In this document: piece after piece, positions 3,225 through 3,678 of the stretch
Layout: every line of letters begins with the position of its first letter
Numbering within the stretch: position 1 is the first letter of the stretch
DNA from: a virus
Taxonomy: Duplodnaviria; Heunggongvirae; Uroviricota; Caudoviricetes
Strand: one strand, 5' to 3'
DNA: 7,608 nt
Virus record (IMG/VR): IMGVR_UViG_2711768006_000008
Position numbers and translations under genes: made by a program
The notes under the pieces: generated by a model
Told to the model about the DNA's origin: nothing
The model's input: only the letters and a program-made list of their open reading frames with translations
Databases searched by the model: none

Positions 3225-3240
3225 TCCTCACGCTCCATAA

Positions 3241-3259
3241 ACGACAAAACCGCCCGCAG
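3241..3259. repeat. Left copy of a 19-bp imperfect direct repeat (acgacaaaaccgcccgcag) directly abutting the 375-N block
   Basis: Compared with 3635-3653 (acgataaaaccgcccggag): 17 of 19 positions identical, same orientation, each copy touching an edge of the N run. Confidence 0.8.
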
Positions 3260-3634
3260 NNNNNNNNNNNNNNNNNNNNNNNNNNNNNNNNNNNNNNNNN
3301 NNNNNNNNNNNNNNNNNNNNNNNNNNNNNNNNNNNNNNNNNNNNNNNNNNNNNNNNNNNNNNNNNNNNNNNNNNNNNNNNNNNNNNNNNNNNNNNNNNNN
3401 NNNNNNNNNNNNNNNNNNNNNNNNNNNNNNNNNNNNNNNNNNNNNNNNNNNNNNNNNNNNNNNNNNNNNNNNNNNNNNNNNNNNNNNNNNNNNNNNNNNN
3501 NNNNNNNNNNNNNNNNNNNNNNNNNNNNNNNNNNNNNNNNNNNNNNNNNNNNNNNNNNNNNNNNNNNNNNNNNNNNNNNNNNNNNNNNNNNNNNNNNNNN
3601 NNNNNNNNNNNNNNNNNNNNNNNNNNNNNNNNNN
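3260..3634. other. Run of 375 N in the I-J intergenic region (content unknown)
   Basis: Direct observation. The track ORFs 3170..3679(-), 3198..3641(+) and 3217..3672(-) are almost entirely X and are artefacts of this run. Confidence 0.95.
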
Positions 3635-3653
3635 ACGATAAAACCGCCCGGAG
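3635..3653. repeat. Right copy of the 19-bp imperfect direct repeat (acgataaaaccgcccggag) directly abutting the 375-N block
   Basis: See the left copy at 3241-3259. Confidence 0.8.
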
Positions 3654-3662
3654 GCGATTTCA
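3640..3662 (-). terminator. Short GC stem-loop followed by a T-run just downstream of the I stop codon (weak terminator-like or RNA-structure element)
   Basis: The minus strand reads GAAATCGCCTCCGGGCGGTTTTATCGT: a 4-bp GC stem (CGCC/GGCG) around a 4-nt loop, followed by TTTT. The stem is short, so terminator function is uncertain. The left flank of the N run (3241-3259) carries the 3' half of a similar element (CTGCGGGCGGTTTTGTCG on the minus strand). Confidence 0.3.
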
Positions 3663-3678
3663 CATAAAACATTTTGCA

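Follow-up and report, generated by a model that had tools for sequence, protein, structure and literature searches.

The window considered here, a stretch of 7,608 nucleotides, corresponds exactly to the deposited draft contig CWVL01000184.1 (L187; assembly GCA_001252095.1, 7608 nt), read over its full length as the reverse complement. Its minus strand encodes the distal portion of a tail module of the lambda type, the genes of which were assigned by Pfam matches (Table 1). Tail assembly gene I is called in the public record in a shorter form of 190 residues (3679-4251), and the index entry for CWVL01000184.1 has exactly this 190-aa product. The tail tip gene J starts at 3224, is matched by four J-specific Pfam domain families and leaves the window at its start. 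A Shine-Dalgarno region lies directly ahead of it, and the record of phage 434 (OL657226.1) has a ribosome-binding site annotated in the corresponding position. A scan of the whole window against Rfam returned no match at E <= 1.

Table 1. Features of the window, with positions counted from its first letter.
Feature	Position	Strand	Basis or remark
H (tape measure), 3' part		minus	Pfam; gene order H-M-L-K-I-J
M	5695-6024	minus	Pfam
L	4997-5695	minus	Pfam
K	4248-4991	minus	Pfam
Tail assembly gene I	3679-4350, 223-aa ORF	minus	Pfam PF06805 Lambda_tail_I, E 3.5e-27
Complete I-J hairpin, allele A	3635-3663	minus	minus-strand GTGAAATCGCCTCCGGGCGGTTTTATCGT, end of I-side contig
N run between I and J	3260-3634, 375 nt	none	very probable scaffolding gap, true length -19
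Hairpin 3' half, allele B	3241-3259	minus	minus-strand CTGCGGGCGGTTTTGTCGT, start of J-side contig
Shine-Dalgarno region of J	3225-3240	minus	TTATGGAGCGTGAGGA ahead of ATG, read from the sequence
J, tail tip/host specificity	1-3224, cut by window start	minus	Pfam FNIII-A_GpJ, Phage-tail_3, Ig_J, Ig_J_second
Second N run, inside J	776-793, 18 nt		true length 31 nt, from relatives with identical flanks

Between the stop of I and the start of J the deposited sequence counts 454 nt (3225-3678), most of it occupied by the longer N run. The run is bordered by an imperfect direct repeat, ACGACAAAACCGCCCGCAG (3241-3259) on the J side and ACGATAAAACCGCCCGGAG (3635-3653) on the I side, whose copies agree at 17/19 positions. 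A preliminary description of this DNA had reported the 454-nt spacer, the 375 Ns and the 17/19 repeat, and all of these hold by coordinates. At one fixed placement an agreement of at least 17/19 has a chance probability of about 6e-9; the repeat is thus not accidental and its two copies are homologous. The same description saw the hairpin sequence on both sides of the Ns, which is correct in full for the I side and in part for the J side. Read in coding orientation, the I-side flank GTGAAATCGCC-TCCG-GGCGGTTTTATCGT holds the full hairpin with its T-tract, whereas the J-side flank, C-TGCG-GGCGGTTTTGTCGT followed by TTATGGAGCGTGAGGA-ATG, holds the 3' half only.

The hairpin exists in two alleles, one with a TCCG loop and TTTTATCGT (allele A), the other with a TGCG loop and TTTTGTCGT (allele B). 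The changes between them keep the stem, in which a C-G pair becomes U-G, while the remaining ones fall in the loop and past the T-tract. With both alleles written together the collapsed junction reads GTGAAA[T/C]CGCCT[C/G]CGGGCGGTTTT[A/G]TCGTTTATGGAGC. Judged by their distribution in related sequences, the two flanks represent one hairpin in two naturally occurring alleles.

How does this interval look in other members of the family? The comparison with related lambdoid I-J junctions that the preliminary description had suggested gave a clear picture: each of the 160 junctions listed from IMG/VR and species-representative genomes has one hairpin in a spacer of ~60 nt. Likewise, the value that description gives for lambda, about 60 nt with one small GC hairpin, is right for all relatives examined. 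An exact 29-mer from the I side of the gap occurs in 13 IMG/VR contigs, all 13 of which go directly into TTATGGAGC...ATGGGTAAAGGC (J). An exact 40-mer from the J side occurs in at least 120 IMG/VR loci, and in all of them it is preceded by GTGAAACCGC, with the stop of I 21 nt further up. Among the variants counted, allele B was found in 97 loci and allele A in 12. Recombinant combinations also occur; one relative (L007) has the allele-A hairpin together with a J start of the allele-B type. The exact L protein of the window is present in nine places, and the I-J spacer is 60 nt in all eight of those with both genes called.

Complete E. coli genomes add to this picture. In an even sample of 60 places, taken down the ranking of 4380 junction-matching complete E. 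coli records, the junction is crossed unbroken in 57. The tail module is a multi-copy element in these genomes, with a median of 2-3 places per genome and a maximum of 14. Sequences close to the window itself behave in the same way. Eight of them were chosen for an exact match to the I protein, in its full or its 190-aa form (the Logan contigs L171-L174 and L192 and the sibling assemblies L189-L191), and in each the I-side allele of the window runs straight into J. A further sibling scaffold, L170, is continuous over the junction and has one hairpin, of allele B. Among the junctions surveyed, no relative carrying either flank allele contains an insertion.

In the course of these searches, lambda-type I genes of 97-100% identity were also met on short contigs from assemblies of unrelated taxa, many of them of low coverage and several at a coverage of ~1. 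Among the matches listed, the taxa include Neobacillus, Pseudoxanthomonas, Shewanella, Bradyrhizobium, Paenibacillus, Chromatium, Enterococcus and a Collinsella MAG (L135-L147, L157-L168). These look like contamination with DNA of phage lambda or E. coli.

The origin of the N runs can be followed in the source record. CWVL01000184.1 was deposited with both of them, of 375 and 18 Ns, and its stored gene calls split J into 817 aa and 258 aa at the 18-N run. The calls were made with the Ns present, which places the Ns in the draft as it was submitted and speaks against masking at a later stage. Sibling draft scaffolds of the same accession series are CWVN01000176.1, CXDM01000241.1, CXFS01000279.1, CXFO01000287.1 and CXFP01000291.1.

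To what extent do such N runs report real distances? A segment of a complete chromosome (CP104423.1, here L176) aligns collinearly over the full length of the window, at 99.1-100% identity, and is the best relative for both of its sides. Mapping all scaffolds onto it gives the real distance under each N run. The 375 Ns of the window correspond to -19, that is, the flanks overlap, and its 18 Ns correspond to +31. In L170, runs of 413, 1, 491 and 11 Ns stand for +364, +83, +254 and +93, respectively. In L188, a run of 1 N stands for -871 and one of 21 Ns for -204, and in L189 a single N stands for -1494. The 19-nt overlap of the flanks at the 375-N run is seen on L169 and L170 as well as on L176. 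The gap estimate in the window is therefore off by 394 bases, and the errors in siblings reach about 1500 bases. Measured against the finished chromosome, N-run lengths in the window's assembly and its siblings are unreliable as a guide to sequence length.

The shorter run inside J shows the same defect. Relatives with identical flanks have 31 real bases at this place, CATCCGGTTATCTGGATTTTTTCAAAGGCGA; the bases on both sides are identical at 60/60 positions in L169 and at 40/40 in L170, with 31 nt between them in each. J stays in frame only if the length of the gap equals 1 modulo 3. With 18 nt the frame meets a stop at codon 817, while with 31 nt no stop occurs before the window ends. The truncation of J to 817 aa and its split in the window are a false frameshift caused by the 18-N run.

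Two of the sibling scaffolds, L188 (CXDM01000241.1) and L189 (CXFS01000279.1), are chimeras, with the joins at their own N runs. L189 presents the order K-[1 N]-L-K-I, which is impossible as a gene order. L188 has the order K-I-J'-[1 N]-I-like, and a third, overlapping stretch of J follows its 21-N run. On the finished chromosome these joins step back by 1494, 871 and 204 bases. From the alignments, both scaffolds are best described as different prophage copies scaffolded in tandem. The backward joins mean that duplication at the flanks of gaps is systematic in this series, and the 19-nt duplication of the window is its mildest form.

The J-side contig end carries a further trace of its origin. 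Compared with L176, it has four mismatches in its first 33 nt (3257, 3245, 3231 and 3227), and the next one follows only at 3061. Compared with the allele-B sibling L170, it has none over 3181-3259, and then a cluster at 3180-3144. The affiliation thus changes within about 50 nt of the gap, from L170-like over 3259-3181 to the reverse preference from 3180 onwards. This pattern implies that the J-side contig opens as allele B and switches to the allele-A lineage across 3181-3226, a stretch identical in both. Most likely, one genome held two lambdoid prophage copies, each of which contributed one of the two alleles. A natural mosaic within one prophage would yield the same contig end and would leave the verdict on the gap unaffected.

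Away from the gap, tight clusters of mismatches with L176 and L009 lie at 3742-3841 (8 positions) and 5788-5911 (20 positions) of the window. Elsewhere both relatives are 99-100% identical to it, with long perfect stretches between the clusters. The clusters are either natural mosaic patches between lambdoid prophages or the consensus of reads collapsed from several copies.

On these comparisons, the 454-nt spacer is very probably a scaffolding artefact that is absent from the organism, where the real spacer would measure 60 nt and hold one hairpin. The preliminary description had put forward, as the second of two readings, that the flanks are the unmerged contig ends of one locus. This reading is borne out by the deposited Ns, the -19 overlap and the 60-nt spacer found everywhere among relatives. 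Its remark that collapsing the two copies gives a lambda-like length proved accurate as well, the result being exactly 60 nt. It had further supposed that 2 mismatches kept the ends from merging; the ends did stay unmerged, and the mismatches are natural alleles rather than errors.

The most likely course of events is as follows. The strain would hold two or more lambdoid prophages whose tail modules are almost the same, and the assembly graph would branch at the hairpin, where three SNPs fall within about 20 nt. Each contig end would then retain one copy of the hairpin, and the two would remain unmerged owing to their differing alleles. The J-side end would have been built from reads of the second copy, with the path returning across the stretch that is identical in both. 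Read-pair evidence would have joined the two contigs, and the scaffolder would have entered 375 Ns as its gap estimate, an estimate that would be wrong because the reads came from two prophage copies. On the finished chromosome the two ends share 19 nt, which lie within the one hairpin of a normal 60-nt spacer. The pipeline behind CWVL01000184.1 was presumably of the short-read draft type. Single-N and variable-N gaps are typical of Velvet/SSPACE/GapFiller-type pipelines.

In all these respects the locus resembles the scaffolding gaps of draft genomes with a false flanking duplication. The gap size is an estimate, the N run is deposited as such and the flanks are one locus. The 19-nt overlap on a finished reference, the defects of the siblings and the multi-copy nature of the region (up to 14 places per genome) belong to the same picture, and there is no substantive difference.

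The other reading of the preliminary description was that a moron-type small gene or ncRNA of roughly 0.4 kb has been acquired between I and J. In its fuller form, the cargo would be a moron, a small gene or an sRNA with its own terminator, the hairpin would be duplicated on each side, and the insert would have stayed unassembled. If this were true, the I-J hairpin would be a previously unrecognised moron insertion site of the lambda tail module. The J-side flank does resemble the 3' half of a terminator, whose 5' half would fall within the Ns and mark the end of the inserted unit. It is, on the other hand, the 3' half of the normal allele-B hairpin, and the supposedly missing part GTGAAACCGC stands directly after the I stop in the at least 120 loci described above. 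None of the 160 junctions listed, of either allele, has an insertion, nor does any sibling assembly with an identical I protein. In the flanks visible beside the Ns, the ordinary I-J hairpin is the only such element. The length of an N run is no reliable measure of real sequence in this assembly and its siblings.

Gapped pattern scans for the implied arrangement point in the same direction, with no contig bearing two hairpins at the implied spacing. In IMG/VR they returned 0 hits for two hairpins 365-395 nt apart and 0 for exactly 375, and in JGI metagenomes 0 for a distance of 360-390 nt; as exact flanks were required, these are weak negatives taken alone. With no insertion in relatives bearing either flank and the spaced-hairpin scans empty, the reading of an acquired insert is not upheld, and a real insertion is very unlikely. 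All relatives fall short of 100% identity across both sides of the window, so that comparison by itself makes a strain-specific insert improbable rather than impossible. That the strain of GCA_001252095.1 in particular holds about 0.4 kb of its own cargo, inserted by recombination at the hairpin, would seem very unlikely indeed.

Morons of lambdoid phages, reportedly treated by Juhala et al. in 2000, are the class that this reading would invoke, that is, extra DNA with its own terminator between conserved phage genes. The window differs in that no extra DNA is evident at its I-J junction and in that the sRNA morons known so far map outside the I-J interval, downstream of P_R'. A site of this kind, bearing an sRNA, has been described there for EHEC prophages (Tree et al. 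2014, PMC4104026). EHEC anti-sRNAs such as AgvB were considered as content of the I-J interval and rejected on the basis of this placement (PMC4104026).

A real long spacer between I and J does exist in another lambdoid remnant, and it is the one finding with a bearing on hidden cargo, as it shows that extra DNA can in principle be accommodated at this site. It was reached via the one alignment in the 60-record sample that came out split and is a 600-nt AT-rich sequence at L185 1756-2355 (NZ_CM128561.1), with a second copy in NZ_CP069677.1 (L193 4501-5100). The spacer contains 7 terminator-like elements, each a hairpin with a T-tract, against 0.7 expected, and two of them are on the strand opposite the tail genes. 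It is unannotated, holds no ORF above 64 aa and has no Rfam match. Of 5426 complete E. coli genomes 5 carry it, and about 50,000 phage records gave no match. Both copies that were inspected sit in a prophage remnant broken up by IS3, with pseudogene annotations for I and J. L185 also has, antisense to the tail genes, a promoter-like site at 2138-2111 that matches 10 of 12 positions. Taken as a predicted promoter, it could define an antisense RNA of ~85 nt ending at 2043-2026.

As the content under the Ns of the window, this spacer was rejected, given its unrelated flanks, its rarity and its position, in both inspected copies, within an IS-disrupted remnant. It shares with the window the I-J interval; its sequence and flanks are unrelated, and it comes without a duplication of the hairpin. 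It therefore leaves the window unexplained and lends little to an insertion there.

A local rearrangement would also place two hairpins around the gap. In this case, an unequal crossover of two prophages would have created a tandem order of hairpin, 5' fragment of J, 3' fragment of I and hairpin, too repetitive for short reads to resolve, and the Ns would stand for duplicated phage DNA instead of new cargo. The two copies do differ in allele, as expected from two prophages, and lambdoid tail modules recombine often, L007 being an instance. Such an order is nevertheless absent from all complete genomes and contigs sampled, and it demands an extra illegitimate junction within the Ns. The duplications in siblings (-204, -871 and -1494) are far more simply explained as contigs of different copies scaffolded together. 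We consider a rearrangement of this kind extremely improbable.

Finally, that the Ns overlie exactly 375 real bases through a masking that preserves length has next to no probability: a few stretches of one collection are indeed described as masked to N runs, but the same runs stand in the NCBI record reached through a different index, with stored gene calls that reflect them, 18 Ns stand for 31 bases where 18 would frameshift J, and public sibling scaffolds carry N runs that are equally variable and inaccurate.

If the interval is a scaffold gap, as we hold, the element that remains between I and J is the hairpin itself. Its folding energy is -14.4 kcal/mol for allele A (z -3.9) and -15.2 for allele B, with z about -3.8 for both. 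The stem has a 5-bp GC core, CCGCC/GGCGG or, with a G-U pair, UCGCC/GGCGG, lengthened by A-U pairs, which makes it a G+C-rich stem-loop. The T-tract is no longer than four consecutive T and continues as (A/G)TCGTTT. A simple consensus terminator scan passed over the hairpin, both here in the window and at the uninterrupted junctions of L176 and L170. In the GenBank record of phage 434 (OL657226.1) it is annotated as 'terminator' at 15466-15485, as a predicted feature, and is followed by the ribosome-binding site of J.

The arrangement is that of lambda and phage 434, with about 21 nt from the I stop to the hairpin and about 20 nt from there to the J start, a nearly identical AAACCGCC-TGCG-GGCGGTTTT and, once the copies of the window are collapsed, a spacer of 60 nt. 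The difference is that the window shows allele A whole and the 3' half of allele B on either side of the Ns. From its sequence and predicted fold we regard the hairpin as terminator-like. Q-modified polymerase reads through terminators in the lambda late operon and would do so at this hairpin. As a candidate role, the hairpin would at most stop unmodified polymerase or shield upstream RNA from 3' exonucleases.

The real locus is thus an ordinary lambda-type I-hairpin-J junction, and it does not amount to a biological discovery. It rather calls for caution, as N runs in draft enterobacterial genomes rich in prophages give unreliable lengths and can conceal an overlap where missing sequence is expected. 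They can fake long intergenic regions, direct repeats and frameshifts, as they did for J here. Reading blocks of Ns as cargo sites leads to false leads wherever multi-copy prophage modules come from short reads.
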